From positions 4,106 through 68,105 of the forward strand of contig JABIHN010000018.1 in NCBI GenBank assembly GCA_018649625.1: 64,000 nucleotides of DNA, in the 5' to 3' direction. The notes beneath the pieces are model-generated. The model had not been told where the DNA came from, did no database searches, and saw nothing but the letters and a program-made list of their open reading frames with translations. Below are positions 10,582 through 48,840 of the stretch, one piece after another (the first letter of the stretch is position 1; the number at the start of each line of letters is the position of its first letter). A program made the translations under genes and the position numbers. Source of the stretch: Fidelibacterota bacterium (GTDB lineage: Bacteria; Fidelibacterota; Marinisomatia; Marinisomatales; UBA1611).

Positions 10582-10585
10582 AATA

Positions 10586-11323: not shown

Positions 11324-12591
11324 TGAGTTTCACATCTTTTCAAACTGAATTTGATAAAATGATGAGCCGGGATTATTTTTCCGATAAAGTTCATCCTATG
11401 AGAGAAGAAGCATTTTCTAAATTTATAGAGATGGGACTCCCAACTAAAAAATGGGAAGATTGGCGATTTACCAATTTATCGTCCATATCTGAACGGGAAT
11501 TCAGAATCTCCGAAATTCAAGATGCACCTAATAGTGATATTGATATCTCTCAATACGATATAAATGATTTAGATACGATAGTTATTTATAATGGTCATTA
11601 CCAAGAATCACTTTCATCAATGCCATCAGGTGTTCAATTGGTATCGGGATTGGAATACTTGAGCAAAACAAATTGGGAATTCAAATCACCCGAAACATCT
11701 CCATTTGATCTTTTAAATACCGCATTTATGGACAGTGGAATGTCTTTCATGGTTGATCAAAATGTAGTTGTAGAAAAACCCATTCGTATGCTTTTTATTT
11801 CTGCTGGTTTAGAGAGTCTTATGGTTACACCTAGAATTCATGTTGATTTAGGTGAGTCCAGTTCACTTACTTTTATTGAACATCATGTTGGAGATTCAAC
11901 ATCATTTTTTCAAAATGAATCCGTATTTATATCTTTAGGGCAAAATGCCCAATTAGATCATATTAGAATTCAGTCTAATTCTATTTCTACTTCAAATATT
12001 GCAAATATAAATGTGTGCCAAAATTCAGATAGTCAATATTATTTTTTCCAATATGCTGACGGGAGTCAATTAAATAGGCTCAATATTAAAACTAAACTCA
12101 TAGGAGAAGGCGCAAATTGCGCAATTAATGGATTGGCATTATCCAATGGAACTCAACATTTAGATCATCACATTATTACAGATCATTTAGTTCCTAATTG
12201 TACCAGTTCACAAAATTTTAAATCGATTTTGCAAGATCAATCTTCCGGTGTTTTTAATGGGCGAACAATTGTATGGCAAAATGCACAAAAAACAGATTCA
12301 AATCAATCCAACAAGAATTTACTCCTTTCTAAAAATGCGCTCATGAATTCAAATCCACAATTGGAAATTTATGCGGATGATGTAAAATGTGCTCATGGAT
12401 CTTCCACTGGTGCCTTGGGTGAAGATGCTCTTTTTTATCTTCGTTCCCGTGGTTTAAATGTGCTGTCAGCGAAAGCATTATTAGTTCGTGGTTTTGCTAC
12501 TGAATTACTGGATAAGGTAAAGCATGGTGGAATTCGAGACTTTATCACAGATCGATTTGATTTATGGCTAATGGAGAACACGAAAGAATGA
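11323..12591 (+). CDS. sufD: Fe-S cluster assembly protein SufD
   Basis: About 422 aa. SufBD-fold C-terminal region (NPQLEIYADDVKCAHGSSTGALGEDALFYLRSRGL). ATG 11323 overlaps the sufC stop as TAATG; the track uses TTG 11311. Confidence 0.9.
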   Translation: MSFTSFQTEFDKMMSRDYFSDKVHPMREEAFSKFIEMGLPTKKWEDWRFTNLSSISEREFRISEIQDAPNSDIDISQYDINDLDTIVIYNGHYQESLSSMPSGVQLVSGLEYLSKTNWEFKSPETSPFDLLNTAFMDSGMSFMVDQNVVVEKPIRMLFISAGLESLMVTPRIHVDLGESSSLTFIEHHVGDSTSFFQNESVFISLGQNAQLDHIRIQSNSISTSNIANINVCQNSDSQYYFFQYADGSQLNRLNIKTKLIGEGANCAINGLALSNGTQHLDHHIITDHLVPNCTSSQNFKSILQDQSSGVFNGRTIVWQNAQKTDSNQSNKNLLLSKNALMNSNPQLEIYADDVKCAHGSSTGALGEDALFYLRSRGLNVLSAKALLVRGFATELLDKVKHGGIRDFITDRFDLWLMENTKE

Positions 12592-12995
12592 CGGTTCGAG
12601 AAACATTAAATGAAATGAATGAATTATTTTCAATTTTCGATAATCCAAAAGACAAGTTTATCCAACTCATGGATATGGCAAAAGAATCGAAAGGATTAAC
12701 TGAATCTGAAAAGACGGATGAGAATAAAATTTATGGTTGTACATCTCAAGCTTGGGTTGTTGCAGATCGTAGTGATCAGGAAACTTTTACTTTTAGGACT
12801 GAATCTGACGCAATGATTGTAAAAGGATTGCTTGTATTATTAGAAAACATATTCAATCAGCAACCTGTTAATGAAATTTTATCCGTAAATAGTGTCGATA
12901 TATTAAACTCCATTGGATTGGATGGCGCAGTAACCAGCCAACGAACCAATGGTTTTTCCAGTGCAGTTGAAAAAATTCAAGGACTCGTGAAATGA
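12588..12995 (+). CDS. sufE: Cysteine desulfuration (sulfur acceptor) protein SufE
   Basis: Contains the active-site context YGCTSQAWV and SDAMIVKGL. ATG 12588 overlaps the sufD stop as ATGA; the track offers an earlier ATG at 12564. Confidence 0.85.
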   Translation: MTVRETLNEMNELFSIFDNPKDKFIQLMDMAKESKGLTESEKTDENKIYGCTSQAWVVADRSDQETFTFRTESDAMIVKGLLVLLENIFNQQPVNEILSVNSVDILNSIGLDGAVTSQRTNGFSSAVEKIQGLVK

Positions 12996-13534
12996 ACCAA
13001 GTTCCAAATGAATCGATTAGATTATTAAGGGATGTAGATGCCAATATGGTTCCTTCGGGCGATGAAGTCAAATTGCTTGCAGGGAATTTGGTGCGTGTTA
13101 CTCAAGCTTTGGGCGGAAATTATACGATATTAATCAATGGGAATATGGTTCAGATTTCCGCAGAAAATGCAGATGCTCTCGGATTTGAAATTGAAAAAGA
13201 GTCAGATGAAAGCACACCAAAAGGAAATCTTGAGCAACAGGTTTGGGATCAGCTTAAAACATGTTACGATCCGGAAATCCCCATCAATATTGTGGAGTTG
13301 GGACTTATTTATGGTTTAGATATTTCTGAATTAGATGAAGGTAAATTAGTTAATATAAAAATGACTCTTACTGCACCAGGTTGCGGTATGGGTCCCATGA
13401 TTGGTGAAGAAGCAAATCGAAAAGTGAAAGCTTTGTCAGATGTTGAAGATGTTTTAGTCGAGTTAGTTTGGGAGCCGCAATGGAATCGGGATATGATGAG
13501 TGAAGCTGCTCAATTAGAACTGGGAATGTTTTGA
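12992..13534 (+). CDS. sufT: SufT-type DUF59 protein (long form, about 180 aa)
   Basis: The C-terminal DUF59 module has CYDPEIPINIVELGLIY and TLTAPGCGMGPMI. An N-terminal extension of about 80 aa matches SufT-like proteins. Its ATGA overlaps sufE. Confidence 0.8.
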   Translation: MNQVPNESIRLLRDVDANMVPSGDEVKLLAGNLVRVTQALGGNYTILINGNMVQISAENADALGFEIEKESDESTPKGNLEQQVWDQLKTCYDPEIPINIVELGLIYGLDISELDEGKLVNIKMTLTAPGCGMGPMIGEEANRKVKALSDVEDVLVELVWEPQWNRDMMSEAAQLELGMF

Positions 13535-13620
13535 TTTTCCTGCCACAAAGAACATCAAGAAGCGCAAAATCCTTAAATAAAATTCTTAGCGATTTTTCGC
13601 GACCTTAGCGGCTAATTATA

Positions 13621-14814
13621 ATGAATTTTTCAGCAAAAGAAGTCAAAAAAGATTTCCCCATTTTTAAAGACTCTAATTTAGTCTATTTGGATAATGCGGC
13701 AACAACACAAAAACCCCAAGCTGTTTTAGATGCGGTTGAATCCCTTTATAAAGAAGCTAATGCCAATGTGCATCGAGCTCTTTATTCACTCGGAAGCGAT
13801 GCCACGGAACGATTTGAAAATTCACGTAAAAAGGTTGCCAACTTTATTGGTGCACCTTCAAAGGAAATTATATTTACCAGTGGTACAACAGAATCAATTA
13901 ATCTTTTGGCTCGCACGCTTGGAGACACATTAAATTCCGGTGATGAGATTCTAATTTCTGAAATGGAACATCATTCTAATATTGTTCCTTGGCAAATGGC
14001 TGCAAAGCGAACCGGTGCTTCTTTAAAATATATACCAATTACAGAATCAGGTGAATTGGAATTGGAAAATGCTGATTTTAATATCAAGACAAAAATTGTT
14101 TCTCTTACTCATATGTCAAATGTTTTAGGGACAATTAATCCTATTGAAGAATTATCTAAAAGAGCACACGAAGTTGGAGCAATCATGATTGTGGATGGAG
14201 CCCAAGGCGTTCCTCATATGGCTGTAAATGTAAAAGATTTAGGATGTGATTTTTATGCCTTTTCAGGACATAAAATGCTAGCACCCACAGGCATTGGTGT
14301 TCTCTGGGGAAAAACCGAACACTTGGAAGAAATGGATCCTTTTATGGGTGGCGGTGAAATGATTGATATAGTTAGTATGGAGTCTTCCACATGGAATGAA
14401 ATTCCCTATAAATTTGAAGCTGGGACACCAAATTTTGCACAAGCGGTTGGTTTGGGGGCTGCGATTGACTATTTAGAGAAAATTGGAATGGATGAAATTC
14501 AAAATCATGAAAAAGTTATTACACAATATGCTTATAACGCTTTAAATCAAATTGGTGGTTTAAAAATCTATGGTTCTGCTAAAGAGCGGGGTGGTGTTAT
14601 CAGTTTTAATGTGGATGGGATTCATCCTTACGATCTTGCTCAATTTTTAAACGAAGATAATATTGCGATACGTGTAGGGCATCATTGCGCACAACCACTT
14701 CTTAAAACCCTCGGAGAGACAGCTACGGCGAGAATGAGTTTTTATATCTATAATGATGAATTGGATGTGGATAAGTTCTGTGCATCATTGGAAACAATTA
14801 AAGGATATTTTTAA
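13621..14814 (+). CDS. sufS: Cysteine desulfurase, SufS (group II, CsdB-like)
   Basis: 397 aa. PLP-lysine context FSGHKMLAPTGIGVLWG. C-terminal active-site region RVGHHCAQPL. Confidence 0.95.
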   Translation: MNFSAKEVKKDFPIFKDSNLVYLDNAATTQKPQAVLDAVESLYKEANANVHRALYSLGSDATERFENSRKKVANFIGAPSKEIIFTSGTTESINLLARTLGDTLNSGDEILISEMEHHSNIVPWQMAAKRTGASLKYIPITESGELELENADFNIKTKIVSLTHMSNVLGTINPIEELSKRAHEVGAIMIVDGAQGVPHMAVNVKDLGCDFYAFSGHKMLAPTGIGVLWGKTEHLEEMDPFMGGGEMIDIVSMESSTWNEIPYKFEAGTPNFAQAVGLGAAIDYLEKIGMDEIQNHEKVITQYAYNALNQIGGLKIYGSAKERGGVISFNVDGIHPYDLAQFLNEDNIAIRVGHHCAQPLLKTLGETATARMSFYIYNDELDVDKFCASLETIKGYF

Positions 14815-22113: not shown

Positions 22114-22290
22114 ATGTCTAAAACAAATACACTAGCCGATCAAATTAAAGGTCACTTCGCTGAATTCACCGATAATCATGATAAGAACATGAACGGAAAC
22201 AAAGCAGCAGGTAGCCGAGCTCGTAAAGCTGTTGGCGAAATTAAGAAACTTGTAACTGATTATCGTAAATCTTCAGTTGCTGGTGAGTAA
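22114..22290 (+). CDS. Histone H1-like small basic protein (Bacteroidetes-type)
   Basis: 58-codon ORF, below the track cutoff: MSKTNTLADQIKGHFAEFTDNHDKNMNGNKAAGSRARKAVGEIKKLVTDYRKSSVAGE. The core GNKAAG.RARKA...IKKL....R matches small proteins annotated as histone H1 in FCB bacteria (from memory). A strong terminator follows. Confidence 0.65.
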   Translation: MSKTNTLADQIKGHFAEFTDNHDKNMNGNKAAGSRARKAVGEIKKLVTDYRKSSVAGE

Positions 22291-26625: not shown

Positions 26626-27219
26626 ATGATCCATCATTCAAATCTTTCTCATACATTTTTTCCAAATATATCTGAACAATGTCGGTTAGAAATCTTAGCC
26701 GATTTAAACTCAAATATAACAAAGGCTGAAAAATCTCATTTCATTAATAGAAGATGGGAAAATTTGTACCTTCATCCAAATGATGTAAAAGGTGTAAAAT
26801 CAATTTTTCAAATTGCATCCAAACTTGCAAAAAATATTTACGGAAAATCTTTGATAGTTCCACATCAAGGATATGGTATTTCTTTTGATGAATTCTGGTT
26901 TAATGTTGCAAAGCCTGGAGAAGAAACAGGCTGGCATAATCATAAAAAAAACGCAGTGGTTTCGGGCGTATATTATTTAGATATCCCTATAGATTCAGGA
27001 GATATTCAATTTCGTAAAAAAGAGAAAGATGAATGGGTATATTGGACAGAACAGTCAAAAACAGGGAAAATGATTCTATTTGATTCAAAATTAGAACATT
27101 CAGTTTCAAAAAATAAGAGTGGTAGAAATCGAATTTCTATAGCATTTAATCTCTATGCGTTGCCTTTAAAAATTGAAATTGATTCAAATCAGTATTCACT
27201 TAATAAATTCTTTTCTTGA
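26626..27219 (+). CDS. 2OG-Fe(II) oxygenase superfamily protein (TIGR02466 / 2OG-FeII_Oxy_5-like)
   Basis: 197 aa. GWHNH...SGVYYL...GDIQF...GKMILFDSKLEHSV..N.S...RISIAFN fits the H-x-(D/H)...H jelly-roll pattern of that family. Confidence 0.7.
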   Translation: MIHHSNLSHTFFPNISEQCRLEILADLNSNITKAEKSHFINRRWENLYLHPNDVKGVKSIFQIASKLAKNIYGKSLIVPHQGYGISFDEFWFNVAKPGEETGWHNHKKNAVVSGVYYLDIPIDSGDIQFRKKEKDEWVYWTEQSKTGKMILFDSKLEHSVSKNKSGRNRISIAFNLYALPLKIEIDSNQYSLNKFFS

Positions 27220-27239: not shown

Positions 27240-28739
27240 ATGAAATATTTTTTATTATTTTTAGGATTAATAAGTCAATTTATTTTGGCGAATGAATTTT
27301 CACAAAGCACTTTAGTATCCACAGAGCTTACGGCATATAATTATTATCCGGATATTGAAGTTGATGAATCTGGAACTATCTATATTGTTTGGGTAAATAG
27401 CCATCAAGGTGGCGATGTACATTTTGCAATGTCCAATGATCATGGCCAAACATTCACTCATTTATCAAGGGTGAATCACGTTCTAAACCAAGCAACCACC
27501 ATTGGGTTCAGTGGACCGCAAATTGAAGTCCTAAATGATACAATTCATGTTCTTTGGACGGATCAACGTTCAGGATATTCTCACACATCGGCATATTATG
27601 CTAGATCCATAGATCAGGGGATCTCTTGGGAAGAATCTCAAATTGGGCACCCAAATGGTGTCAATTTCTATCCAGAACTTATGATAGACTCAGAAGGGAT
27701 TATTCATGCATCATTTCATTATTATCAATCTGGATCATTTGATTATCATCATATCGCACATACATTTTCTTCTGATGGTGGGGAAACATGGTCAGAATAT
27801 TCGAATGTTAGCGATTATGAAATCGGTGAACCTTGTGATTGTTGCCCGATTGAACTACATGAGTTGCCTAATGGGAAAATTATTCATGGCTTCAGAAATA
27901 ATAATGAAAATATTCGGGATATGTTTTCCACTGAATGGAAATCTGAAGATTCAACTTGGATTAATTTAGCGCCCTTATCTTATGATAACTATTTTGTGGA
28001 TTTTTGTCCATCTAGTGGGCCAAGCATGGTTAGTTTAGATTCTACAGTTGCCATGGCATATATGGCCGGGCTGAATGGAGATACGAGAGTTTTTTTATCA
28101 TTATCTGATGATTTAGGTGACACTTTTTCTGTGAATATTCCATTAGAAATCTCAGGACAAACAGATATTAATCAAAATCACCCTTCTGCTGTAATCACGG
28201 ATAATGGTGATATCCATATGATTTGGGAAGATAGTAGAAATGGAGGAAATATTTTATATGGAAAACTTGAATTCGGACAAACACTTTTTTCTGATTTTTC
28301 AACAGTGAATGATTCCGCCACAACATTTCCAGAGATTGCACCAAAACTGGCTCGGGATTCTGAAGGGTTTTTATATGCCGTTTGGGTCGATAGACGATAT
28401 GGGCGTCAGATCCATTTTTCAACAACATATCCAGTGCCTTTATCCAATCAGCATAAAATAATTCCGGACTTATTTACATTATTTGAACCTTATCCCAATC
28501 CCTTTAATCCAAGGACTACAATTCAGTTTTCAATTCAATCAGAAATATCACATGCATTTGCATTACTTCAAGTATTGGATATAAACGGTCGAATTGTTGA
28601 AACATTAGTCAATGAGAAAAAAGAAAAAGGTATACATAAAATTCAGTGGAATGCTTCTGACTATTCAAGTGGTGTATATTTTATTTCTTTAAAAATTCAT
28701 GAAAATGTAAAAACTGTAAAAACTATTTTATTGAAATAA
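27240..28739 (+). CDS. Secreted BNR/Asp-box (sialidase-fold beta-propeller) protein with T9SS C-terminal sorting domain
   Basis: Signal peptide. Four Asp-boxes: SNDHGQTF, SIDQGISW, SSDGGETW and SDDLGDTF. C-terminus PYPNPFNPRTTIQF...SGVYFISL...VKTILLK. Confidence 0.8.
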   Translation: MKYFLLFLGLISQFILANEFSQSTLVSTELTAYNYYPDIEVDESGTIYIVWVNSHQGGDVHFAMSNDHGQTFTHLSRVNHVLNQATTIGFSGPQIEVLNDTIHVLWTDQRSGYSHTSAYYARSIDQGISWEESQIGHPNGVNFYPELMIDSEGIIHASFHYYQSGSFDYHHIAHTFSSDGGETWSEYSNVSDYEIGEPCDCCPIELHELPNGKIIHGFRNNNENIRDMFSTEWKSEDSTWINLAPLSYDNYFVDFCPSSGPSMVSLDSTVAMAYMAGLNGDTRVFLSLSDDLGDTFSVNIPLEISGQTDINQNHPSAVITDNGDIHMIWEDSRNGGNILYGKLEFGQTLFSDFSTVNDSATTFPEIAPKLARDSEGFLYAVWVDRRYGRQIHFSTTYPVPLSNQHKIIPDLFTLFEPYPNPFNPRTTIQFSIQSEISHAFALLQVLDINGRIVETLVNEKKEKGIHKIQWNASDYSSGVYFISLKIHENVKTVKTILLK

Positions 28740-28813
28740 GGTATTTATGGTCGTTGATTGATGTTGAAACTAGTTTTAACTTTATGGCTAACTTATTTTA
28801 ATCGGAGAACAAT

Positions 28814-29491
28814 ATGAATCGTTTAATAATTGGTGTCCTTCTTTCTTTTACTGTAATTATTTCAGTAACAGCATTGAATTATTCACCTGATATTAACTCA
28901 GGGAGCTCTAGCTGCAAAAGTACATCGTTATGTGAAAAGTCCGGACCATCTTGTGAGAAGAAAAAATCATGCGATAGTCAAAGATTTAACAAAAATTGTA
29001 ATAAAAGTGATAAAAGTTCCTGTGCATCCAAAAAGAAAAAGTGCTCAACTTCAGATGCTAAATATGACAAATACAAACATTGCGAAACAAGTAAGACTCA
29101 ATGTGATTCTAAAAAGAAAAAATGTTCAACTTCAAATGCTAAATGTGGCAAAGATAAACAGTGCGACACGAGTAAGACTCAATGTGACTCTAAAAAGAAA
29201 AAGTGCTCAACTTCAGATGCTAAGTGTGACAAAAACAAACATTGCGATACGAATAAAACGCAATTTGCATCTAAAAAGAAAGAATGTTCTAAAAGTGAGA
29301 AAACATTTGAATGTAAAAGCGTGAAAAAATCATGTGCTCTAGATTGTACAAAACCATGTTGCGCAAAAAAAGTGACAAGTAGCACATGCAAACCCGATTG
29401 TACCAAACCATGTTGTGCAAAAAAAGTGACAAGTAGCACATGCAAACCGAATTGTACGAAACCTTGTTGTGCAGGTAAATCAGTACACTAA
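28814..29491 (+). CDS. Exported Cys/Lys-rich tandem-repeat protein (possible metal-binding or disulfide-rich surface protein)
   Basis: RBS GGAGA 5 nt before the ATG. Signal/anchor MNRLIIGVLLSFTVIISVTA. The remaining ~200 aa consist almost only of C, K, S, T and D, with about 30 Cys mostly spaced C-x5-6-C. The C-terminus is CTKPCCAKKVTSSTCKP x2.4. A strong terminator follows. Confidence 0.7.
   Translation: MNRLIIGVLLSFTVIISVTALNYSPDINSGSSSCKSTSLCEKSGPSCEKKKSCDSQRFNKNCNKSDKSSCASKKKKCSTSDAKYDKYKHCETSKTQCDSKKKKCSTSNAKCGKDKQCDTSKTQCDSKKKKCSTSDAKCDKNKHCDTNKTQFASKKKECSKSEKTFECKSVKKSCALDCTKPCCAKKVTSSTCKPDCTKPCCAKKVTSSTCKPNCTKPCCAGKSVH
29030..29290 (+). repeat. In-frame tandem repeat, 81-bp unit x3.2 (27-aa unit KKKKCSTSDAKCDK.KHCDTSKTQCDS)
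   Basis: Units start at 29030, 29111, 29192 and 29273 (the last partial). Copies differ by scattered substitutions. Confidence 0.9.
29342..29473 (+). repeat. In-frame tandem repeat, 54-bp unit x2.4 (18-aa unit DCTKPCCAKKVTSSTCKP)
   Basis: Units start at 29342, 29396 and 29450 (the last partial). The first two copies are nearly identical. Confidence 0.9.
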
Positions 29492-29530
29492 AATTTATGC
29501 GTTTCAATACGCTTACTAATTTTATCATTA

Positions 29531-29558
29531 CACCCAGAATATTTCTGGGTGTTTTGTT
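29531..29558 (+). terminator. Rho-independent terminator of the Cys-rich gene
   Basis: CACCCAGAA-tat-TTCTGGGTG followed by TTTTGTT. Confidence 0.75.
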
Positions 29559-29796
29559 ATTTCAACCTGTTACTAAATTAATACCAGTTTATACGAATTC
29601 TATCGTAGCGTGTAATGAAGAGACTGATGACTTTATTTACAAAAGATAATCTAAATCAGGCTTTACCAATTTTTTGTGATGTGTTTGAGTGAGAACCAAA
29701 TTTACAAAAACTAATACCAAGATTAGTGGATGTTGGATTATTATTGAATGATCCCAAACTCACTGAAATTATAATGAACAACTATTAAGGAAATTT

Positions 29797-32972: not shown

Positions 32973-34499
32973 TTATTTTAATAGAGTGATTTTTTGGTTT
33001 AATAAAGATCCAATAGCGTCTATTTGAATTATATAAGTGCCCGAAGCTAATTGGGTACCATTTAATATAAATTTATTTTTCCCAGCATTTTTAATACCCA
33101 ATCGAAATGTTTTAATTTTTCTACCTCGTAGATCTAATATTCGAATTGTTACGTTCCCATTTTTTGGTAAAGTATAAGAAAGAATTGTAGTGGGGTTAAA
33201 TGGATTTGGAAAAGCGGGCTCCATGGTAAAGTTTGCTGGAATTGGTGTCTGCTTAATTGATAAAGGTGTTTGAATAAATGGTATTGATTCAAATTCTTGT
33301 CCAAAAACAGTATTGGCAATATTTTGATCTAAACCAAACCAATCTGTGATAATTGATGAATATAATTGACGGAAATCATGTTGAATAAAAAGATTGTTAT
33401 TTTGATCTAGAGAAGATAGAGATGGTTGTTCACCAAATAAATCTGGTACAAGGTGATTTCCAAAAACCATAGTCGGCGCTGCTGTTCCATGATCAGTTCC
33501 CGTAGATCCATTCTCAAAATATCGGCGTCCAAATTCACTGGTCGTTACAATCATGACTTTATCCATTAATCCTTGATTCTCTAAATCTTGCATAAAAGCT
33601 GAGATCGAATTATTCAAATCAGAGAGTAAATTATTGTGAGTGTTTCCCTGATCTACATGTGTATCGTAACCTGATTGATAAATTCGATAAATAGGTGTTT
33701 GTAATCCACCCGAAATCATTTGTGCAGTTAAAGCCATTTGATATCCGAGATTGGTTTCTGGATACTCTATAGAATTTGAGCCCCCAGCTGCAGTTTCATT
33801 AATAACTTCAGCATATTCAAAAGAAAGCAAATCAACTTCTCGAATAAAATCTAATTCCAACCCACCATAAGTATCTAAAGCTGGGTCATTTTCGCCAGGT
33901 ATATAATTACCATTAATAAGATAATACATCGTTTCAGGATCAAAGACCATCATTCCTGTATTTGACTCAGATGTTTTAAATTCTAACAAATTTGCACTGT
34001 TAAATTGAATTGCCAATGGATGGTCTGGTGCATTAGATGGAAAATCAGGATATTCCTGCTCTAGGAGACGACCAATCCAACCTGTTTGCAAATATTCATT
34101 TGCGTCAGAACCAGTTACCCAAATATCTGAAGATCGAAAGTGTGATAAATTAGGCTGATGGTAACCTACACCATGAATTAAACTCATTTGTTCATTTTGA
34201 AATAAGGAATGAAAAGCAGAAAGACTTGGGTGAAATCCGTTATAGTCATCAATTCCTAAGGCTTGATTTTGTGAAATTGCGAGGGTGGGTCTTGCATTAT
34301 AATAGATATCATTTTGGACAGGAATAATTGTATTTAAACCATCATTTCCACCATTCAATTTGATTAAAACTACAATTCTATCAGATTCCCATTCGACACT
34401 TCGGCCCAATTTGTTTTTCCGGCCCAATGCCATAATTGGAATTTGTGTACCAAAAGCAGATAAAGCAAAAGCAGACTTAATAAATTCACGACGTTTCAT
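32973..34499 (-). CDS. DUF1501-family (sulfatase/alkaline-phosphatase-fold) protein with twin-arginine signal and T9SS C-terminal domain, copy B
   Basis: MKRREFIKSAFALSAFG Tat motif. Family blocks LNGGNDGLNTII, LSHFRSSDIW, VTTSEFGRR and GTDHGT. C-terminus FPNPFNPTTILSY...GTYIIQI...KITLLK. Confidence 0.85.
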   Translation of the reverse strand: MKRREFIKSAFALSAFGTQIPIMALGRKNKLGRSVEWESDRIVVLIKLNGGNDGLNTIIPVQNDIYYNARPTLAISQNQALGIDDYNGFHPSLSAFHSLFQNEQMSLIHGVGYHQPNLSHFRSSDIWVTGSDANEYLQTGWIGRLLEQEYPDFPSNAPDHPLAIQFNSANLLEFKTSESNTGMMVFDPETMYYLINGNYIPGENDPALDTYGGLELDFIREVDLLSFEYAEVINETAAGGSNSIEYPETNLGYQMALTAQMISGGLQTPIYRIYQSGYDTHVDQGNTHNNLLSDLNNSISAFMQDLENQGLMDKVMIVTTSEFGRRYFENGSTGTDHGTAAPTMVFGNHLVPDLFGEQPSLSSLDQNNNLFIQHDFRQLYSSIITDWFGLDQNIANTVFGQEFESIPFIQTPLSIKQTPIPANFTMEPAFPNPFNPTTILSYTLPKNGNVTIRILDLRGRKIKTFRLGIKNAGKNKFILNGTQLASGTYIIQIDAIGSLLNQKITLLK

Positions 34500-36154
34500 G
34501 ATAATTGAAATTCTGGTACACGCATGATATAAATCATTAAATCTTTCATTCTATTCCATTGAGGATCATTGGGGGGTGCATTAATGGACCAATCATAGGG
34601 TTCAGCGCCATCAAGAAGAACTGCTAACATTCGCTCTTCAAGATTCTCCGAAAGAGGATTCCCAAAAAAGAGAAAACCAAGGTTTTTTACAATTTGTTCT
34701 GATGCATATCCTTCTTCATTTTGATTATACATAGATTGTGCCAAGGCACGAACATTAGTCGTCATATCAAAATTCCCCCATGGACTTTGCCCCGTGATAA
34801 GTGACGTTGCTTGGATTTTTCGAACTGGCAGTGTTATTGAATTAATCCACGATCTATATCCTGGCCAACCACTCACATCTGGCGGCTCCAAAGGAAGCAT
34901 CCCCAAAAATTCCTGTGAATGAATAAAAAAGGAGATGGAGAAATCAAAGTTTTCCATATTGCATTTTCGAATGAGTCCCTGCATTAAAGTAACCGGATTT
35001 TGTATATCTGATCCTCGAAAATTTTCATCATAAAAATGTTCTGTTGAAAAAAGGAAATAAAGGACAGTAGCGATGTTGTAATTATTATTTCTTAAAACAT
35101 TGGCCATTTCATTTACAACTGTTTCATTAACATTTTGGTAAACAAACCATTTGTAAAGTCGAGTACAAATATGGATAGCAGTGGCATCTTGTTCCATGAT
35201 AATATTTATAATGTCATCACCATTCCAATGACCGGTTTGCCCCAGAAATGTTTTAGATCCGAAATCGTGCTTATTCGTCCACCAATTCCCAGTGCCAGAG
35301 CCTTCTTCGAAATTATAATTTGTCTCCACTCCATTAGTCAAATAACCGGTGAAAGCACGAGCTGCTTCTACAATGTCATCTTGCGAATAGGTATCAACTC
35401 CCATGGTGAATAGTTCCAAAAGTTCTCGTGCAAAATTTTCATTGGGTTCTTCACGTGTACTTTGATATAAATCTAGCCAGATTATCATGGCGGGAGCAAA
35501 GGTAACTTGTCGCAGTAATTCCTTAAAATTGCCAAGTCCGTATTGTCTGAAGACAGAATTTTGTTGATACATAGCTTGCGGAAAAATGACTTTCGATTGA
35601 GCGGTTGCAAAATAATTATGCCAGAAAAGTGTTATCATTTCTTGAATGTTAACAGGATTTCGCATCATGCCTTTCATCCACCAATATCCAAGATCTTTCA
35701 TTCTTATTCGATATTGTTGAAGAAGCTCTAAAATTTCATCTTCTGTTAGAGCATCCCATTGTGGCGCATCTTCATCTACCCAATCCCCGGGTGGGTCAGG
35801 TAATGGTTGATAAGAAAGAATTGAGCTTAATTCCAATTCCATTGAATTTTCACTGCTTTCTTTTATTTCAGGATATTTAGGACCAAACATTGACCGGCTT
35901 AATAAATGTTTTGCAGCGCCCATATCCCAATTTACTTCTTGCAAGGATTCGGTATTGTTGGTACCTGGAATTACGGGTGCTATTTCATCTGTTTTCGGTG
36001 GGTGATAAATGGGCGGTTGTTTCTCTAAATGTTCACGAACGAACTTGGCTACTCGCTTAGTGGGCCAACTTGGGTTAAGCCTATCTAGATCGGGACGAGC
36101 ATCAGAATGATTTCCTGTTAAAAAGTTACGTCGAGATATTGAAGGTAAAGGCAT
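34496..36154 (-). CDS. DUF1800-family protein, copy B
   Basis: 552 aa. HLLSRSMFGP, TLFWHNYFAT, NENFARELLELFTMGV and EPPDVSGWPGY. Its stop overlaps the DUF1501 start as ATGA. Confidence 0.85.
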   Translation of the reverse strand: MPLPSISRRNFLTGNHSDARPDLDRLNPSWPTKRVAKFVREHLEKQPPIYHPPKTDEIAPVIPGTNNTESLQEVNWDMGAAKHLLSRSMFGPKYPEIKESSENSMELELSSILSYQPLPDPPGDWVDEDAPQWDALTEDEILELLQQYRIRMKDLGYWWMKGMMRNPVNIQEMITLFWHNYFATAQSKVIFPQAMYQQNSVFRQYGLGNFKELLRQVTFAPAMIIWLDLYQSTREEPNENFARELLELFTMGVDTYSQDDIVEAARAFTGYLTNGVETNYNFEEGSGTGNWWTNKHDFGSKTFLGQTGHWNGDDIINIIMEQDATAIHICTRLYKWFVYQNVNETVVNEMANVLRNNNYNIATVLYFLFSTEHFYDENFRGSDIQNPVTLMQGLIRKCNMENFDFSISFFIHSQEFLGMLPLEPPDVSGWPGYRSWINSITLPVRKIQATSLITGQSPWGNFDMTTNVRALAQSMYNQNEEGYASEQIVKNLGFLFFGNPLSENLEERMLAVLLDGAEPYDWSINAPPNDPQWNRMKDLMIYIMRVPEFQLS

Positions 36155-36242
36155 TTTTAAGAATTATCTATTGTACAGTTATATTAACTGACCCACATTA
36201 CCTTAATAAGTTAAATAGTGAAAGACATTTAATTTCATAAAA

Positions 36243-37799
36243 TTATTTTATCAGCATCACTTTTTGGCTACGAATCCCAAAATCTGACTTAACCTGAACA
36301 AGATATGGTCCAGAAGGAAGAGAATTACCACGTAGAATAAATTCATTAGAACCTGAATTTAATTGTCCCAAATTGAATTCTTGAATTTGTTTACCATTTA
36401 AGTCGAACAGTCTAATTTTCACGATAGAATTTGATGGGAGGTTGAATGAAATTGTTGTTGATGGATTAAATGGATTTGGATAGGCTGGGTGTAATTTGAA
36501 TTTCTTTAGGATATGAGATTCATCATGAATAGCTACCGTTTGATTAAGAAATGGGATTGGCGAAAAATTACCGCCAAAGACGGAGCTTGTAATTGATTCG
36601 CTTGTACCGAACCATCGAGTCATTAATGTTGAATAAATTTGTCTATAATCAAATTCCATTTCCATATTCCCATTTACATCAATTTGATTATAATTGGGAT
36701 TCTCTCCAAATATACCGCCATTTATATCTGAACCAAAAATAAGAGTAGGTGCACTTGTACCATGGTCTGTTCCTAAAGAAGCATTCTCAAAGGCTCTTCG
36801 GCCAAATTCGCTCGTTGTAACAACCAGAACTTTATCTAGAACGCCTAAAGCATCCATTTCTGATAGGAAAATTGATAGAGAATCGGAAAGTTCTGATAAA
36901 AGGGTAGAGTGCCTTCCTGTCGTAGATGGCGATGATCCAACTTGATCTATATGAGTATCATAACCATTTTGATATAGTCGATAAATAGGTGTTGGCAATC
37001 CGCCAGCTATTAATCTTGCTGTAATTTCAAATTGTTGACCTAGGCTTGTATTAGGATATTGCAGTACAGTATTGGGCGCATTCTCAGCTGTTTCGTTTAT
37101 TATTTGTGAATATTCGAAAGAAAGTAAATCCATTTCTCTTAAAAAGTTTAATTCATCTCCACCATAAGTATCAGGTGCTTCATTTTCTTGATCATTTATA
37201 TAATTTCCAGTAATGATAGAATACATGGTGTCTGGATCATAAAGGTATAGGGCCATGTTTGAATTTGACGATTTAAACTCTAATAAATTTGCGCTATTAA
37301 ATTGAATTGCAAGAGGAAACTCGGGGCTATTTTCAGGGAAACCTGGATATTCAGCTTCAAGAAAACGACCTATCCATCCAGTAAACAGTTCTTCATCTTC
37401 ACTTGAACCAGTATCCCAAATATCAGATGAACGGAAATGGGACAAATCGCCATTTGGATAGCCAACATTTTGAATAATACTCATTTGAGAGTTTTGATAA
37501 AAAGGTAGAAGAGGTTCTAATGCTGGGTGTAAAGCGAGGCTATCTGTAATTGGAATTGATTGATTATTGGGAATCCCAATCGTGGGTCTTAATTGGTAAT
37601 ATAAAGGGTCTTGGTGTGAAATGATTGTATTTAATCCGTCATTTCCACCATTTAATTTAACTAAAACTATAATTTTATCAGAATCTAGCGATGTTGTTTT
37701 TAAAGAGCTTCGTTTAGGTCCGCCTATTAAAGTTTTTGGGAGTGCAGCTCCAAGCGCAGAAATGACAAATGAAGATTTTAAAAAGTCTCGCCTTTTCAT
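36243..37799 (-). CDS. DUF1501-family protein with twin-arginine signal and T9SS C-terminal domain, copy A
   Basis: MKRRDFLKSSFVISALG. It has the same family blocks as copy B. C-terminus YPNPFNPSTTISF...GPYLVQV...KVMLIK. Confidence 0.85.
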   Translation of the reverse strand: MKRRDFLKSSFVISALGAALPKTLIGGPKRSSLKTTSLDSDKIIVLVKLNGGNDGLNTIISHQDPLYYQLRPTIGIPNNQSIPITDSLALHPALEPLLPFYQNSQMSIIQNVGYPNGDLSHFRSSDIWDTGSSEDEELFTGWIGRFLEAEYPGFPENSPEFPLAIQFNSANLLEFKSSNSNMALYLYDPDTMYSIITGNYINDQENEAPDTYGGDELNFLREMDLLSFEYSQIINETAENAPNTVLQYPNTSLGQQFEITARLIAGGLPTPIYRLYQNGYDTHIDQVGSSPSTTGRHSTLLSELSDSLSIFLSEMDALGVLDKVLVVTTSEFGRRAFENASLGTDHGTSAPTLIFGSDINGGIFGENPNYNQIDVNGNMEMEFDYRQIYSTLMTRWFGTSESITSSVFGGNFSPIPFLNQTVAIHDESHILKKFKLHPAYPNPFNPSTTISFNLPSNSIVKIRLFDLNGKQIQEFNLGQLNSGSNEFILRGNSLPSGPYLVQVKSDFGIRSQKVMLIK

Positions 37800-39451
37800 G
37801 ATAATTGAAATTCAGGTAGTCTAAACATATGTATTAACATATCTTTCATTCGATTCCATTGTGAATTGTAAGATGGAAGATTAATATTCCAATCATAGGG
37901 TTCTGCACCATTTAATAGAATGTCTTGCAGTTGTTGCTCCATAGCTTCGGTTAAGGGTAACCCGAAAAAAATGAAGGCTAATTTCCGAACAACTTGTTCA
38001 CTCGGATACCCATCATCATTTGGATTATATAATGATTGTGAAAGAGTCTGGAGATTCAAATAGGTTCCAAAATTCCCGAAAGGGCTTTCACCTGTAATGA
38101 GAGATGAAAGAACAATTTTACGCATTGGAATTGTATTGGAATTAATCCATGAATGATATCCTAACCAACCACTTACATCTGGTGGCTCAAATAATAGCAT
38201 ACCCATTGAATCTTGTAAATTTGGAAAAAAATTAGTTGGAAAGTTTTGATTTTGAAGATTTAATCTTTTAATTGTGCCCGTCATCATCTGATTTGGATTT
38301 TGAATTGCTGCACCACGAAAATTTGGATCATGAAAATGTTCACTTAATAATAAGAATTCCATCATTGGTTTTATTTCATAATCATTTGATCTTAAAACAT
38401 CAGCCATTTCAGAAATAAATGATTCATCTACATTATCATAAACAAACCATTTATAAATTCGACGACAAATTTGTTTTGCACATTCATCTTGTTCTAAAAT
38501 GATATTTAATATATCATCTCCAGTCCAGTTTCCAGTTTGTCCAAAAAAAGTTTTTTCATCAAAATCATGCCAATCAGTCCACCAGTATCCCCATCCTTCC
38601 ATAGTTTCAAAATCATAATTTGTTTGAATTCCATCAGTAACGTATCCAGTAAATGCTCTTGATGCTGCCACAACATCATCTTGTGAATAATTATTAACAC
38701 CTAATGTAAATAACTCCATTAATTCTCTTGCGAAATTTTCATTAGGCGCATGTTTTTTACTTCCACCAGTATCAAGCCAAATTATCATAGCTGGACCAAA
38801 AGTAATTTGTCTTAAAAGAGATTTGAAATTACCAAGACCATGTGTTCGGAAAACTTGTTGTTGATGGTACATTGCTTGTGGGTAAAAAACTTTAGAATAA
38901 CCGGTTGCGAAATAATGATGCCAAAATAGTGTCATGGTTTCAGTAATATTTATTGATTCATTCATCATTCTTTCACACCACCATCTTCGAAATTGATTCA
39001 TTCGATTGTAATATGATTGAATAATTTCATTTCTTTCAGCAGTTGATAAAGAATTCCAATTTGGTAGATCTTCATTCACCCAAATTCCAGGCGGTTCAGG
39101 AAGAGATTGTTCTTCTAATAATGATTGTACGGTTGACTCTAAACCAGATGTGAATGATGTATTAATTTCATCGTAGGACGGACCTGAAAGAGTGCGATTT
39201 AATAAGTGTTTTGCTGCATCAAGATTCCAATCAATTTCTTGTAAAGAATTGGTTCTATTTTTTACATGAATAATTGGGAGCGTTTTTTCTGTTTTTTGAA
39301 TTGAATGGCTGATGGGATTCTTTTCGAAATTTGCCCTAATTAGTTTAGCGACTTCTTTTGTTGGCCAATTGGGATTTAGTCTATCTAGGTAAGTTTTAGA
39401 TTTTTTTCCACCGGAAATGAATTGTCTTCTAGATATTCGTGAATTAGACAT
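37796..39451 (-). CDS. DUF1800-family protein, copy A
   Basis: 551 aa. HLLNRTLSGP, TLFWHHYFAT, NENFARELMELFTLGV and EPPDVSGWLGY. ATGA overlap with copy A of DUF1501. Confidence 0.85.
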   Translation of the reverse strand: MSNSRISRRQFISGGKKSKTYLDRLNPNWPTKEVAKLIRANFEKNPISHSIQKTEKTLPIIHVKNRTNSLQEIDWNLDAAKHLLNRTLSGPSYDEINTSFTSGLESTVQSLLEEQSLPEPPGIWVNEDLPNWNSLSTAERNEIIQSYYNRMNQFRRWWCERMMNESINITETMTLFWHHYFATGYSKVFYPQAMYHQQQVFRTHGLGNFKSLLRQITFGPAMIIWLDTGGSKKHAPNENFARELMELFTLGVNNYSQDDVVAASRAFTGYVTDGIQTNYDFETMEGWGYWWTDWHDFDEKTFFGQTGNWTGDDILNIILEQDECAKQICRRIYKWFVYDNVDESFISEMADVLRSNDYEIKPMMEFLLLSEHFHDPNFRGAAIQNPNQMMTGTIKRLNLQNQNFPTNFFPNLQDSMGMLLFEPPDVSGWLGYHSWINSNTIPMRKIVLSSLITGESPFGNFGTYLNLQTLSQSLYNPNDDGYPSEQVVRKLAFIFFGLPLTEAMEQQLQDILLNGAEPYDWNINLPSYNSQWNRMKDMLIHMFRLPEFQLS

Positions 39452-42231: not shown

Positions 42232-45200
42232 ATGGAAGGACATTTTCATTTGACGCAATTATTCACAAAAAATATATACACAAAAATATTAGTTATAATA
42301 TCTGTATTATTTCTTTTTTATATATATTCGCTTTGGTATAAATCTTATGTACAAAAAACGGGTTATGGACCGCGTGTAGTATTTGCATCAAAAAGAAACT
42401 TTTTTACTAAAACTCGTGGAAATATAGAAGGGTATCGAGTTGTGCTTGATTTTCGTAAAAAGTTAAATTCATCTCATCCCGGATTTCTTGTCCCCAAATA
42501 TTCAAACTTTATTCAAGCATATGAAGGTGATAGTTTTATTTCCCACGATACAGTATTGCAAGCTCAACAAATACCAATTCAGGAAATTTCTAAAATTGAA
42601 TATAAGAAGATTAATAAAGATAGTTCATTTGCACTATGGGCAATTCAAAGAGTTAATTCAAAATCGCTTATTCCTCGAACAAGTCTTTATGTTTTAGAAC
42701 CATCAGAATTTGAGCTATGGTGGAAACCTCCAAATTCTTCAAACTATGAAAAACTGGATAATTCAGAAGAATTAAATATTCGGATTCATGATGAAGTAAA
42801 GTTGAATGGAATCGAAGTAACAGAATACGATGATAATTATACTATTTGGATACTCGGTTATAATGGTATTTTATATAATTATTTTGTTGATAAAACAACT
42901 GTGCAAGAAAATGGAGGTATTCTTAAGAAAGGCCCTAAGATTTTAGCAGCAAATACGCCAACAGATATGCGGTATATCTGTGATTTGACAATAATACTTG
43001 GTGATTCATATAATACAGGTTGGCAAAGTTTGGATGCTATTGAAGGAGAAATTAGAGGACTTCCTGCAAGTCAAAAATATCATTATTTTTTTTCAATTAA
43101 TGCGGTAAAGCTTGAGTACCTCGTAATTGGGATACCTAAAGGAGACAATGATAATCCTATAATTACACATACATTACCATTTGATGTGAATAATACTAAA
43201 ATTAAGTGGGATGAAGGAACAGTGGTTTTTAGACCAATTTCTAACTACGGTTCTGATGATTCTCTCTTTATTATTTCAGCGGATGCTTTCGGTGCATCAG
43301 TTTTTACAAGAAAAATTGATTTAAGTTTTGAAAAGAAGGATAAATCAAGCTTTGGGCTAAATATGAATACGCAAGTAATAGACAGTATTCAAGTTTATGG
43401 CTTTGACCAAGAGCGTGCTTATATAGAAGGAGTAGCGCTCGGAACAAATGAACATACAGATTTAGTTGTTTCAGATAGGGAAGGTATTATTCATCAATAT
43501 CAATGTTATCATACGAAATTATTTCCAAATCAACCGATTAAGCTTAGTTGCATTATTCGAAAATGTATCCCAAAAAATATTTTTAGTTTTTTAAAAGACG
43601 GCACTTTTGATAGTCCTATAAAAGTCGATTTAAGAACGAGCGTGACACATGGTCAAGATGTTGCATATGATAGCCAAGGCGGAGTTTGGATTGCAGATGA
43701 ACACTATTTTAGAAAAATTTACCCTTCATTATTTGGCTTCTGGTATCAATGGGCATTGTTTTTTGCGAATCAAAATTGGATCCCCGTTTTGTTTATATTT
43801 GGAATAGTTTTTAATCTTTACAGAGCTGGTAGTCGTATGAAAACTGCCCAAATTCTTATTGAAAAACAAAATATAGAATTAAAAAAACATTCCCAAATAC
43901 AATCGACATTTTTTGCTCATATTTCTCATGAATTCAGGACGCCACTTAACTTGATTCTTGAGCCATTAAATGAACTTCGAGAAAAAGATTTAAAAGGCAA
44001 TTTTCTTAAACAATATAATATGATTGAACAAAATGGAAATAGGTTATTAAAACTGATCGATCGATTATTAAAACTTTCAAAATTAAAAGTAGGTAAACTT
44101 TCCTTACGAGCTGGGCACTATAATTTAATTCCTTTTTTACAAGGAGTTGAGCAAGCGTTTGAACTCTATGCCAAACATGAACGAATATCTTTGAGGTTTG
44201 AATCAAATGAAGAGAAGATAATGTTATATTTTGATTATGATAAGCTTGAAGATATTCTGTATAATTTATTGGCAAATGCTTTACGGCATACAAACACAAA
44301 CGGGAAAGTATTAATTAAAATTAAATGTCAACCGGGAAATAAATATTTCCCTGAAGGATTTGTCAATATTTCCATAAAAGACACAGGTTGCGGAATTACA
44401 AAAGAACGTTTACCATATATTTTCGATCTTTATTATCAAGCAAACGAAGATAAAATTGGCACAGGAATCGGGTTAGCATTAACAAAAGGACTTATTCAAT
44501 TACATCATGGCGATATCAGTGTCAAAAGTGAACTTAATTGGGGAACTCAATTTTCTTTTAATTTGCCACTGGGTAAAAAGCATATTAATAAAAAAGAAAT
44601 TATACGAAGTCAAAATAGCGTAAAAAATAATGGTAGTGGCATTTTGAAAGAAGTTGATTATAATGAAGAGATTGAACCTTCTCTCCATCCATCAAAAACT
44701 GATCCCAAATCAGAAATTATTTTACTCATAGATGATCAACCTGATTGGAGAAATTATGTAAAAGAAAATTTATCTGATCAATATCAGATAATTGAAGCAA
44801 AAGATGGCGGAGAAGGATATGGCTTAGCAATATCCAATGATCCTGATATGATTATTTGTGATATTAATTTACCTGTTTTGGATGGTTTGAAATTGTGTGA
44901 AAAATTAAAAAATGATTTACGAACCAGCCATATACCATTGTTATTGTTAACGGGACGAGCTGATGAAGACGATGAAATTGAAGGATTTGATGCTGGGGCT
45001 GATGACTATATCACAAAACCAGTTAAACTAAAGGTATTAAAAGCTCGCATTAGAAATCATTTATCTCAGAGTCAAAATGTAATTAAAACGATCAAACGTA
45101 CAGGTTCAATTGATTCTGTAATAAAATTAGATTCCCCTGAAACAAAAGAATTTTTAATAAAATTCAGGAGCATAATTGATGAGAATCTATCCAGCGGTAA

Positions 45201-45465
45201 ATATTTTGATATGACTATTTTAGCAAAAAAGATGGGAATGTCCAGAAAATCGCTCTATCGAAAATTTTCAAAAACTATTGATATGTCACCCGGTGATTAC
45301 GCATATGAAATAAGGCTTCAAAAAGCTGCAAGTCTTTTATTACATTCAAATGAAACAATTGAAAAAATAGCATTAAATGTAGGGTTTTCAAGTGGATCGC
45401 ATCTTGCGAAACGATTTCGCGATCGATTTGGTTTATCCCCAAATGATTATAGAGATAAAAATTGA
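42232..45465 (+). CDS. Hybrid two-component system protein (periplasmic sensor + HisKA + HATPase_c + REC + AraC-type HTH)
   Basis: 1077 aa. N-terminal TM, then about 480 aa periplasmic with one regulator-propeller-like repeat (DVAYDSQGGVWIA), then a second TM. H-box FFAHISHEFRTPLN, G-box GTGIGLALTKGL, REC domain ILLIDDQPD...DMIICDINLPVLDG, and a C-terminal AraC HTH (IALNVGFSSGSHLAKRFRDRFGLSPNDYR). Confidence 0.85.
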   Translation: MEGHFHLTQLFTKNIYTKILVIISVLFLFYIYSLWYKSYVQKTGYGPRVVFASKRNFFTKTRGNIEGYRVVLDFRKKLNSSHPGFLVPKYSNFIQAYEGDSFISHDTVLQAQQIPIQEISKIEYKKINKDSSFALWAIQRVNSKSLIPRTSLYVLEPSEFELWWKPPNSSNYEKLDNSEELNIRIHDEVKLNGIEVTEYDDNYTIWILGYNGILYNYFVDKTTVQENGGILKKGPKILAANTPTDMRYICDLTIILGDSYNTGWQSLDAIEGEIRGLPASQKYHYFFSINAVKLEYLVIGIPKGDNDNPIITHTLPFDVNNTKIKWDEGTVVFRPISNYGSDDSLFIISADAFGASVFTRKIDLSFEKKDKSSFGLNMNTQVIDSIQVYGFDQERAYIEGVALGTNEHTDLVVSDREGIIHQYQCYHTKLFPNQPIKLSCIIRKCIPKNIFSFLKDGTFDSPIKVDLRTSVTHGQDVAYDSQGGVWIADEHYFRKIYPSLFGFWYQWALFFANQNWIPVLFIFGIVFNLYRAGSRMKTAQILIEKQNIELKKHSQIQSTFFAHISHEFRTPLNLILEPLNELREKDLKGNFLKQYNMIEQNGNRLLKLIDRLLKLSKLKVGKLSLRAGHYNLIPFLQGVEQAFELYAKHERISLRFESNEEKIMLYFDYDKLEDILYNLLANALRHTNTNGKVLIKIKCQPGNKYFPEGFVNISIKDTGCGITKERLPYIFDLYYQANEDKIGTGIGLALTKGLIQLHHGDISVKSELNWGTQFSFNLPLGKKHINKKEIIRSQNSVKNNGSGILKEVDYNEEIEPSLHPSKTDPKSEIILLIDDQPDWRNYVKENLSDQYQIIEAKDGGEGYGLAISNDPDMIICDINLPVLDGLKLCEKLKNDLRTSHIPLLLLTGRADEDDEIEGFDAGADDYITKPVKLKVLKARIRNHLSQSQNVIKTIKRTGSIDSVIKLDSPETKEFLIKFRSIIDENLSSGKYFDMTILAKKMGMSRKSLYRKFSKTIDMSPGDYAYEIRLQKAASLLLHSNETIEKIALNVGFSSGSHLAKRFRDRFGLSPNDYRDKN

Positions 45466-45644: not shown

Positions 45645-45795
45645 TAATAAATCCTATTAAAAATATTTGTTTTATTTGAAAAAACAATAACAACCTGGTC
45701 AATCTTACTGAAAAAGACAGCTTGAAAAATGAAGAAATACTTTAATTATTCAAGTAGCGTTACGATTGTATAAACTAAATAAACTGGAGAATAAA

Positions 45796-48717: not shown

Positions 48718-48743
48718 TGGTGCATAATAAATTATGATCCACC

Positions 48744-48781
48744 AGGGGTTCCTTTAATAACTCCTTGATTTAGGAGCCCCT
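48744..48781 (+). terminator. Hairpin after the TonB receptor gene (possible attenuating terminator)
   Basis: AGGGGTTCCT-(18 nt)-AGGAGCCCCT, a 10-bp stem with one G-U pair. The downstream U-tract is weak (TGTAAAATTTTG). Confidence 0.4.
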
Positions 48782-48840
48782 TGTAAAATTTTGTAAGATT
48801 AATAAAAATATTTCAACATGCAAATATTTAAGGGTAAAGA

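Follow-up and report, generated by a model that had tools for sequence, protein, structure and literature searches.

A C-x3-C-T-K-P-C-C repeat in an exported-type Marinimicrobia protein: an undescribed candidate module for soft-metal binding

Periplasmic copper handling is mainly attributed to Met/His proteins and folded chaperones, and the known bacterial metallothioneins are rare, small, cytosolic and non-repetitive; apo-metallothioneins fold only upon metal binding (PMC7558416). CusF is a folded β-barrel that holds Cu(I)/Ag(I) via Met, His and Trp, and Csp1 is a Tat-exported, rigid four-helix bundle (PMC7558416). In human COX17, Cys23/Cys24 form a copper-binding motif that stays reduced in the oxidising intermembrane space (PMC12114033). 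We analyzed a 64,000-nucleotide stretch of a Fidelibacterota genome (contig JABIHN010000018.1, positions 4,106 to 68,105; hereafter the window, 34% G+C), in which one plus-strand gene encodes a Cys- and Lys-rich protein that ends in three C-x3-C-T-K-P-C-C units. By the profile and motif comparisons reported here, this protein is a member of none of these functionally closest systems, and its repeat class is new to curated libraries. The parts of the gene are as follows.

28814..29491, plus strand: coding sequence, 225 aa with 30 Cys and 50 Lys; the frame is kept by orthologues and backed by the substitutions between repeat copies.
28814..28873, plus strand: residues 1-20, MNRLIIGVLLSFTVIISVTA, predicted Sec-type signal peptide or signal anchor with V-T-A at −3 to −1.
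28874..28912, plus strand: residues 21-33, LNYSPDINSGSSS, conserved Lys/Arg-free spacer preceding the polycationic part.
28913..29314, plus strand: residues 34-167, lattice of Cys, Lys, Ser and Asp in which most of the 18 Cys follow each other at 6-7 residues.
29021..29286, plus strand: 81-bp (27-aa) tandem repeat, 3.3 copies, expanded in the window's lineage only and missing in four aligned orthologues.
29333..29470, plus strand: residues 174-219, three C-x3-C-T-K-P-C-C-A units with 12 Cys, the conserved module.
29342..29473, plus strand: 54-bp (18-aa) tandem repeat, 2.4 copies.

We compared the protein with each described system. Like SmtA/BmtA and MymT it is Cys-rich, has few hydrophobic or aromatic residues and is probably unfolded without metal; being Cys-rich, poor in aromatics and without a predicted fold past residue 20, it falls within a broad definition of metallothioneins. 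It differs from the SmtA/BmtA type in its length of 225 aa, its signal sequence, its tandem units and its strongly cationic character: it is neither small nor leaderless, and it has no metallothionein Pfam match. The likeness to CusF comes from two relatives, P0004 and the L013 protein, which are encoded inside OEP-CusB-CusA operons and for which the same hand-over role is suggested. Unlike in CusF, the candidate ligands are the Cys of a repeat predicted to be disordered, and no such operon surrounds the window gene. Csp1, like the window protein as we predict it, is exported, Cys-lined and of high capacity, and we propose soft-metal storage for the window protein too; in contrast to Csp1, it has a Sec-type leader, no helix predicted past residue 20, hence no four-helix bundle in the model, and no Pfam match. 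COX17 offers a shared K-P-C-C-A with a vicinal Cys pair (the COX17 site is K-P-C-C-A-C) in a compartment equivalent to the periplasm. However, the window protein has no pair of C-x9-C segments, no predicted helical hairpin of the twin CX9C kind and no detectable homology to COX17, so the likeness may be convergent and serves as a lead, not as homology.

An earlier reading of this DNA from its letters alone (the sequence-only reading) had described an exported-type, Cys/Lys-rich open reading frame (ORF) with few hydrophobic residues, and the counts bear this out. The 225-aa ORF starts at an ATG and contains, besides its Cys and Lys, 37 Ser, 20 Thr and 14 Asp. Past residue 20, only 11 of 205 residues are I, L, V, M, F or W, and 51 Lys and Arg stand against 20 Asp and Glu (net charge ~+31), with 3 Tyr, 3 Phe and 3 His. 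Cys makes up 13.3% of the protein (15% past residue 20), compared to a mean of 0.88% and a maximum of 4.5% in the 47 other ORFs of the window; for Lys, the share is 22% versus 6.2%. For a degenerate DNA pattern encoding CTKPCC, the window has 3 occurrences where chance predicts 0.01. The gene had been drawn to 29558, a position within the U tract of the terminator; the ORF itself ends at 29491.

The two in-frame repeat families that had been proposed were recovered by Tandem Repeats Finder, the 81-bp family with 83% matches and the 54-bp family with 92% matches. Cys follows Cys at a distance of 6-7 residues across the 81-bp repeats, the pattern of the tail is C-x3-C-x3-CC, and the widest gaps between consecutive Cys are 9, 9, 13 and 14 residues. 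The first Cys of the three terminal units are residues 174, 192 and 210. We scored the proportions of synonymous (pS) and non-synonymous (pN) differences between repeat copies. Pairwise, the 81-bp copies have pS of 0.38-0.57 and pN of 0.075-0.11, and the three full copies differ 5, 8 and 24 times at codon positions 1, 2 and 3. Read in the Cys frame, they give a pN/pS of 0.20; the two other frames give 3.1-3.3. Copies 1 and 2 of the 54-bp unit are separated by 3 synonymous and 0 non-synonymous changes. This is a real protein-coding gene, and purifying selection acts in the Cys frame.

We considered whether the ORF could be a mere by-product of tandem repetition, or whether an overlapping ORF at 28932-29324 (130 aa, +1 frame) could be the true frame. 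The DNA is indeed repetitive and of low complexity, and the second ORF is present. Its frame, however, is among those with pN/pS of 3.1-3.3, and it lies mostly inside the 81-bp expansion, which has no counterpart in the aligned orthologues. These same orthologues keep the leader, the Cys positions and the terminal units, and the ribosome-binding site, promoter-like boxes and terminator (see below) are conserved. On pN/pS, 28932-29324 is ruled out as the true frame, homologues keep the frame originally assigned, and the probability that there is no gene here is negligible. An index of public assemblies lists exactly this 225-aa protein in at least 263 blocks, from marine metagenomes, and two marine contigs that we retrieved show a single mismatch to the window over 20,678 aligned positions. 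Despite these 263 blocks, the exact sequence was absent from the protein-cluster collection, and neither a 22-nt exact pattern nor a protein-guided scan of metagenome_contigs matched the gene.

We then asked where else the terminal unit occurs. A profile of two to three units, run without a word index against 1.84 billion representatives (E ≤ 1e-3), returned a class of 99 clusters, 18 of them at E ≤ 1e-10, and a whole-protein phmmer search independently recovered the class. Membership required at least two copies of C-x3-C-[T/D/N/S]-K-[P/A/E/Q]-C-C; the window protein has three. The consensus of 49 distinct units from three phyla is K-x-C-x-P-D-C-T-K-P-C-C-A-x-K, in which the four Cys and the Lys are invariant, and K-x-C-x-x-[DNG]-C-T-K-P-C-C-A is kept residue by residue in Marinimicrobia, Planctomycetota and Bacteroidota. 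Judged by these alignments, the conservation of the unit exceeds what is shared composition, and the CTKPCC module is rare but real. Many class members are lipoproteins of 56-90 aa that consist of two or three units and nothing else, and the last unit usually lies a few residues from the C-terminus.

The sequence-only reading had recognized no family, which holds for curated libraries only. The window protein has no Pfam match at E ≤ 1, including to HMA, YHS or HMBD domains, and no relevant NCBIfam match; its sole match among solved structures is a chance one to the low-density lipoprotein receptor (E = 3.6), and no relative was found there. No Pfam or NCBIfam model covers the CTKPCC repeat, so genome annotation misses it. 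Homology searches nevertheless define a Marinimicrobia family around the gene and place its tail in the class of ~100 clusters. A tblastn search of plasmids with a concatenate of the repeat, low-complexity filter on, found no match. In the literature library searched, CTKPCC, TKPCC and DCTKP appeared in no paper and KPCCA only in unrelated strings and the COX17 sequence, and searches for periplasmic metallothionein, metallothionein in Marinimicrobia and YHS with CusB found nothing relevant.

Class members have a hydrophobic N-terminus in 91 of the 99 clusters and, by a crude pattern, a lipobox in at least 52, which argues that the module is extracytoplasmic. The window protein has no lipobox, and its first Cys is residue 34. 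An AlphaFold2 model based on the orthologue alignment (mean predicted local distance difference test score, pLDDT, 36.9) has a helix at residues 4-20 only; the remainder scores below 50, and everything past the leader is thus consistent with disorder. The helix and the hydrophobic segment of the class agree with the N-terminal export signal that had been proposed. V-T-A at −3 to −1 fits a predicted signal peptidase I site, and [VI]-T-[AS] is conserved ahead of [LM]-N-[YF] in the orthologue leaders. Lys and Arg are absent from the 13-14 residues after the leader; by the −3/−1 rule and the positive-inside rule, such a spacer would suit export of a cationic domain. Comparison of codons 1-26 between eight orthologues gives a pS of 0.65 against a pN of 0.16, and the leader and the last C-terminal unit are among the most conserved parts of the protein. 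We also considered the leader as a general sorting tag, an idea rejected because a leader profile retrieved members of the Marinimicrobia family and nothing else.

To which domains is the unit fused? Among the 99 clusters, the Pfam partners are HMA (6), YHS (5), rhodanese (2) and, in single cases, LolA-like, LTXXQ and other domains, and HMBD is fused to the repeat at one locus (L021). Flavobacterial lipoproteins P0009-P0011, which carry a CopZ/MerP-like HMA domain, have the same two-part tail as the window protein: a lattice, then two terminal CTKPCCAK units. Residues 67-220 of the window protein, which span lattice and units, can be aligned to the P0009 tail with 40% identity, so what is common to this protein with its bona fide metal-binding HMA domain extends beyond the last units to the whole mature architecture. 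The window protein differs from P0009-P0011 in having neither HMA domain nor lipobox and in having its own conserved leader. One source labels P0009-P0011 'mercuric ion binding protein'. P0008, P0054, P0083 and P0132 combine CTKPCC repeats with LTxxQ-like segments, as found in periplasmic CpxP/ZraP-type proteins; P0008 and P0132 additionally carry YHS, and P0054 has eight units.

Outside Marinimicrobia, several genomic contexts of the unit involve metals. In two genomes, a lipoprotein with repeat and YHS is encoded between a CusB-like adaptor (HMBD+YHS) and a CusA-like resistance-nodulation-division pump, downstream of an outer-membrane factor (OEP) gene; these Cus-operon relatives are P0004 and the L013 protein, both small periplasmic proteins. 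On a flavobacterial contig, a protein with repeats and a terminal HMBD clusters with a CusB-like adaptor and DUF3347 proteins, and the flavobacterial HMA fusion adjoins CtaA/COX15. Three related planctomycete genomes encode a repeat-only lipoprotein 50-65 nt upstream of a Cu,Zn superoxide dismutase (SOD).

Taken together, these comparisons point to a metallothionein-like protein that is exported and binds or chaperones thiophilic metals in general, a reading to which we give an even chance. The sequence-only reading had proposed metal or metalloid binding: the HMA, YHS and HMBD fusions, the Cus operons and the Cu,Zn-SOD now lend comparative support to the metal part, and the suggested link to selenium through selD comes down to an AIR-synthase-family (AIRS) gene 21 kb away and was dropped. 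Because of the Cus, SOD and CtaA contexts, the HMA/YHS/HMBD partners and the K-P-C-C-A pentapeptide, Cu(I) is our best guess for the metal, although Cu(I) specifically remains a doubtful assignment. In the proposed mechanism, the gene would be transcribed from its own conserved promoter-like element up to a conserved hairpin, and the N-terminal hydrophobic segment would carry the protein across the inner membrane, the leader being either cut after V-T-A or retained as an anchor. In the periplasm, the three C-x3-C-T-K-P-C-C units, with four thiols each, would bind thiophilic ions, most likely Cu(I) and possibly Ag, Hg, Cd or Zn, and the 18-Cys C-x5-6-C lattice would add capacity. The protein would buffer periplasmic metal or hand it on without being an enzyme. 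The housekeeping neighbors of the gene, which include no transporter or sensor, suggest constitutive buffering or delivery rather than inducible resistance.

Several observations weigh against a role in metal binding. None of the Marinimicrobia loci has a metal transporter, sensor or cuproenzyme gene beside the gene for the Cys-rich protein, and three other contexts examined outside Marinimicrobia contain nothing metal-related. HMA or YHS is found in only 11 of the 99 clusters, the SOD association represents a single evolutionary lineage, and the two Cus cases may be orthologues of each other. In an oxidising periplasm, the 30 Cys could end up as disulfides. Classical metallothioneins space their Cys more closely than the C-x5-6-C lattice does, and the likeness to COX17 is limited to five residues. 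Finally, the two rhodanese-bearing clusters point to sulfur chemistry.

The rhodanese fusions are P0060 and P0064, exported proteins with two or three CTKPCC-type units and a hint of a sulfur-transfer role. They raise the possibility that the protein works in the periplasm as a thiol redox buffer or as a carrier of sulfur or selenium, with C-terminal Cys-Cys arms that pass persulfide, polysulfide or selenide from enzyme to enzyme; such a role would agree with the sulfur metabolism of Marinimicrobia in oxygen-poor water. The last unit, usually close to the C-terminus, recalls a swinging arm, and the window contains MsrB and a SelD-like AIRS gene. However, metal domains outnumber rhodanese 11 to 2 in the class, no sulfur-oxidation or polysulfide reductase genes are adjacent, and the proximity of MsrB reflects an extended syntenic block rather than a tie to this gene in particular. 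We therefore consider a sulfur or selenium carrier very improbable.

A different use of the thiols is known from OmcA, a small Cys-rich envelope lipoprotein of chlamydiae, which acts through disulfide cross-links and is, like the window protein with its predicted export, an exported, small to medium-sized and very Cys-rich protein. By analogy with the chlamydial Cys-rich proteins, the window protein might be a disulfide-cross-linked, polycationic envelope protein whose Lys bind anionic envelope polymers, so as to stiffen or organize the periplasm or the outer membrane. Its predicted export, its even number of Cys (30) and its net charge of ~+31 past residue 20 would all suit such a function, as would its place among the core genes, in a syntenic housekeeping neighborhood free of metal genes. 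The window also contains, at ~22114-22290 on the plus strand, a 58-aa gene that matches the chlamydial histone-like Hc1 (PF07432) and is kept in L003; it recalls chlamydial biology only loosely. On the contrary, the precise C-x3-C-T-K-P-C-C motif keeps company elsewhere with HMA, YHS, HMBD, Cus and SOD. The spacers between units are acidic or neutral in Planctomycetota, so polycationic charge does not define the module. The window protein also matches neither OmcA (Chlam_OMP3) nor any other Pfam profile, its motif is different, and it has no lipobox. We judge the envelope function unlikely, though less so than sulfur carriage, and retain thiophilic-metal binding as the preferred reading.

We next examined the family in Marinimicrobia. 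Positional orthologues are found in at least 8 species of this phylum (SAR406), within a conserved block: DUF998, 2-oxoglutarate (2OG)-Fe(II) oxygenase, the gene, DUF1028, lipase, S-adenosylmethionine methyltransferase and MsrB, with insertions or losses in some species. All family members share a near-invariant leader, MNRLT..SVTALNYTPD. The orthologues, 63-183 aa long, all start with M-[NKS]-R-L-T-...-[VI]-T-[AS]-[LM]-N-[YF]-x-P, and complete ones terminate in ...C-G-P-N-C-T-K-P-C-C-A-x-K. The window protein, with the leader pattern and the position, belongs to this leader subfamily. Repeat number differs greatly from species to species. The middle region is highly variable (~ten 16-aa units in L009, a Cys lattice of its own in L012, the 81-bp array in the window lineage only), which indicates that repeat content changes fast between species.

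This fast-evolving middle, together with the signal sequence and the Cys-rich, cationic, repetitive character, would also be expected of a secreted antimicrobial or peptide precursor of a defensin-like kind or of the kind of ribosomally synthesized and post-translationally modified peptides. Yet no maturase, radical-SAM enzyme, immunity gene or dedicated exporter lies nearby, the gene is a stable positional orthologue throughout the clade, and the CTKPCC module recurs in lipoproteins of metal operons; we give a peptide of this sort hardly any credence. A soft-metal module, in turn, could be subject to modification by the upstream neighbor.

26626..27219, plus strand: 2OG-Fe(II) oxygenase, cytoplasmic, PF13759, with a weak 24-bit match to Asp/Asn β-hydroxylase (PF05118).

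In Marinimicrobia the oxygenase gene is always just upstream, and in L009, L011, L036 and L037 it is directly adjacent (71-126 nt). The enzyme could modify the repeats of the Cys protein. In the window, a gene at 27240-28739 on the plus strand stands between the two and encodes a BNR-repeat protein with a type IX secretion system (T9SS) C-terminal sorting domain; it was apparently inserted in the window, L010, L012 and L014, and not in some other species.

The intergenic regions carry candidate expression signals.

28751..28760, plus strand: upstream box TCGTTGATTG with a −33-like TTG; its C-TTG-TT columns do not vary among the 8 orthologous intergenic regions.
28777..28784, plus strand: −7-like element TAACTTTA (TAnnTTTG type), 20 nt past the TTG.
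28804..28808, plus strand: ribosome-binding site GGAGA, 5 nt ahead of the ATG; GGAGA or GGAAA in all 8 orthologues.
29530..29562, plus strand: intrinsic terminator, a 10-bp stem with a 3-nt loop, then UUUUGUUAUUU.
29497..29785, plus strand: what is left of a DUF1028 (PF06267) gene after an internal deletion of ~230 codons (1-48 and 280-332 persist); the terminator lies inside it.

The boxes, which lie in a 75-nt upstream spacer, are kept in the 8 orthologous regions whatever gene stands upstream, and this argues for the gene having its own promoter, of which they are the candidate element. Orthologues have TACATTTG, TACATTCG or TAAATTTC in place of TAACTTTA. The two elements resemble the Bacteroidetes −33/−7 promoter type; a sigma-70 scan called no plus-strand promoter at these boxes. 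The sequence-only reading had given the gene its own GGAGA ribosome-binding site and a strong terminator, and both stand up to comparison.

The terminator hairpin (29530-29552) has a folding energy of −16.8 kcal/mol (z = −5.8; 0 of 200 shuffles fold as well) and looks functional. Its stem sequence is kept in all 7 other orthologous loci (L003, L009-L012, L014, L017); in loci with an intact DUF1028 gene it coincides roughly with codons 12-19 (T-P-G-I-F-L-G-V), within the DUF1028 signal peptide. The stem codons, ACA CCC GGA ... CTG GGT GTT TTG TTT, are invariant at synonymous sites while the flanking codons vary, so the RNA structure itself is under selection. The sole stem change in the window is GGA to AGA, by which a G-U pair becomes A-U. 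An Rfam scan of the whole window found one tRNA only and no known RNA element around the gene.

An intact DUF1028 gene of 331-336 aa begins 6-10 nt past the stop codon in six of eight loci (L003, L009, L012, L014, L017 and L036). When we compared the intact L003 and L014 proteins with the window by tblastn, matches were confined to 29497-29634 and 29627-29785. DUF1028 proteins of relatives have ~332 aa; the stump in L010 has 42 codons and looks like an independent reduction. Because DUF1028 has been gutted in both, the gene is effectively monocistronic in the window genome and in L010, as had been proposed, but this description does not extend to the six loci with an intact neighbor. By comparison of the loci, DUF1028 was ancestrally located directly 3′ of the gene and expressible only by read-through of the terminator. 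A translation-coupled attenuator controlling DUF1028 is a speculative function for the hairpin. A literature search on DUF1028 found nothing relevant.

The remainder of the window contains other gene groups. On the plus strand, 6915-7862 and 9136-14814 comprise an AIR-synthase-family gene (a selD candidate) and, farther downstream, SufB- and SufD-like genes and a class-V aminotransferase (SufS-like). On the minus strand, 32973-39451 carries two tandem DUF1800 and DUF1501 pairs that look like a local duplication, the DUF1501 proteins having T9SS tails. A TonB-dependent receptor, a phytase, a major facilitator superfamily transporter and a metallophosphoesterase stand in a row at 45766-52568 (plus strand) in what looks like a phosphorus-scavenging locus, with a hybrid histidine kinase/AraC regulator upstream of it (42232-45465).

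SAR406, an uncultured lineage, is abundant worldwide in the dark ocean and in oxygen-minimum zones. Our overall proposal, which we hold tentatively, is that C-x3-C-T-K-P-C-C is an undescribed extracytoplasmic soft-metal module with a scattered distribution in Planctomycetota, Bacteroidota and Marinimicrobia, built of repeats and corresponding in the periplasm to metallothionein and the COX17 site, and that SAR406 has expanded it into a 30-thiol polycationic buffer with a conserved leader of its own, maybe hydroxylated by the 2OG oxygenase. The metal-binding claim is directly testable with a short synthetic peptide of two to three units, e.g., KSCALDCTKPCCAKKVTSSTCKPDCTKPCCAKK. If true, the four-Cys repeat would be a new building block for bacterial metal homeostasis, used in Sec-exported proteins and lipoproteins. 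An abundant deep-ocean lineage would then carry a high-capacity trap for thiophilic trace metals that is invisible to catalogues of metal-cycling genes, and this could matter for the cellular holding of Cu, Cd, Zn or Hg in the waters that SAR406 inhabits.

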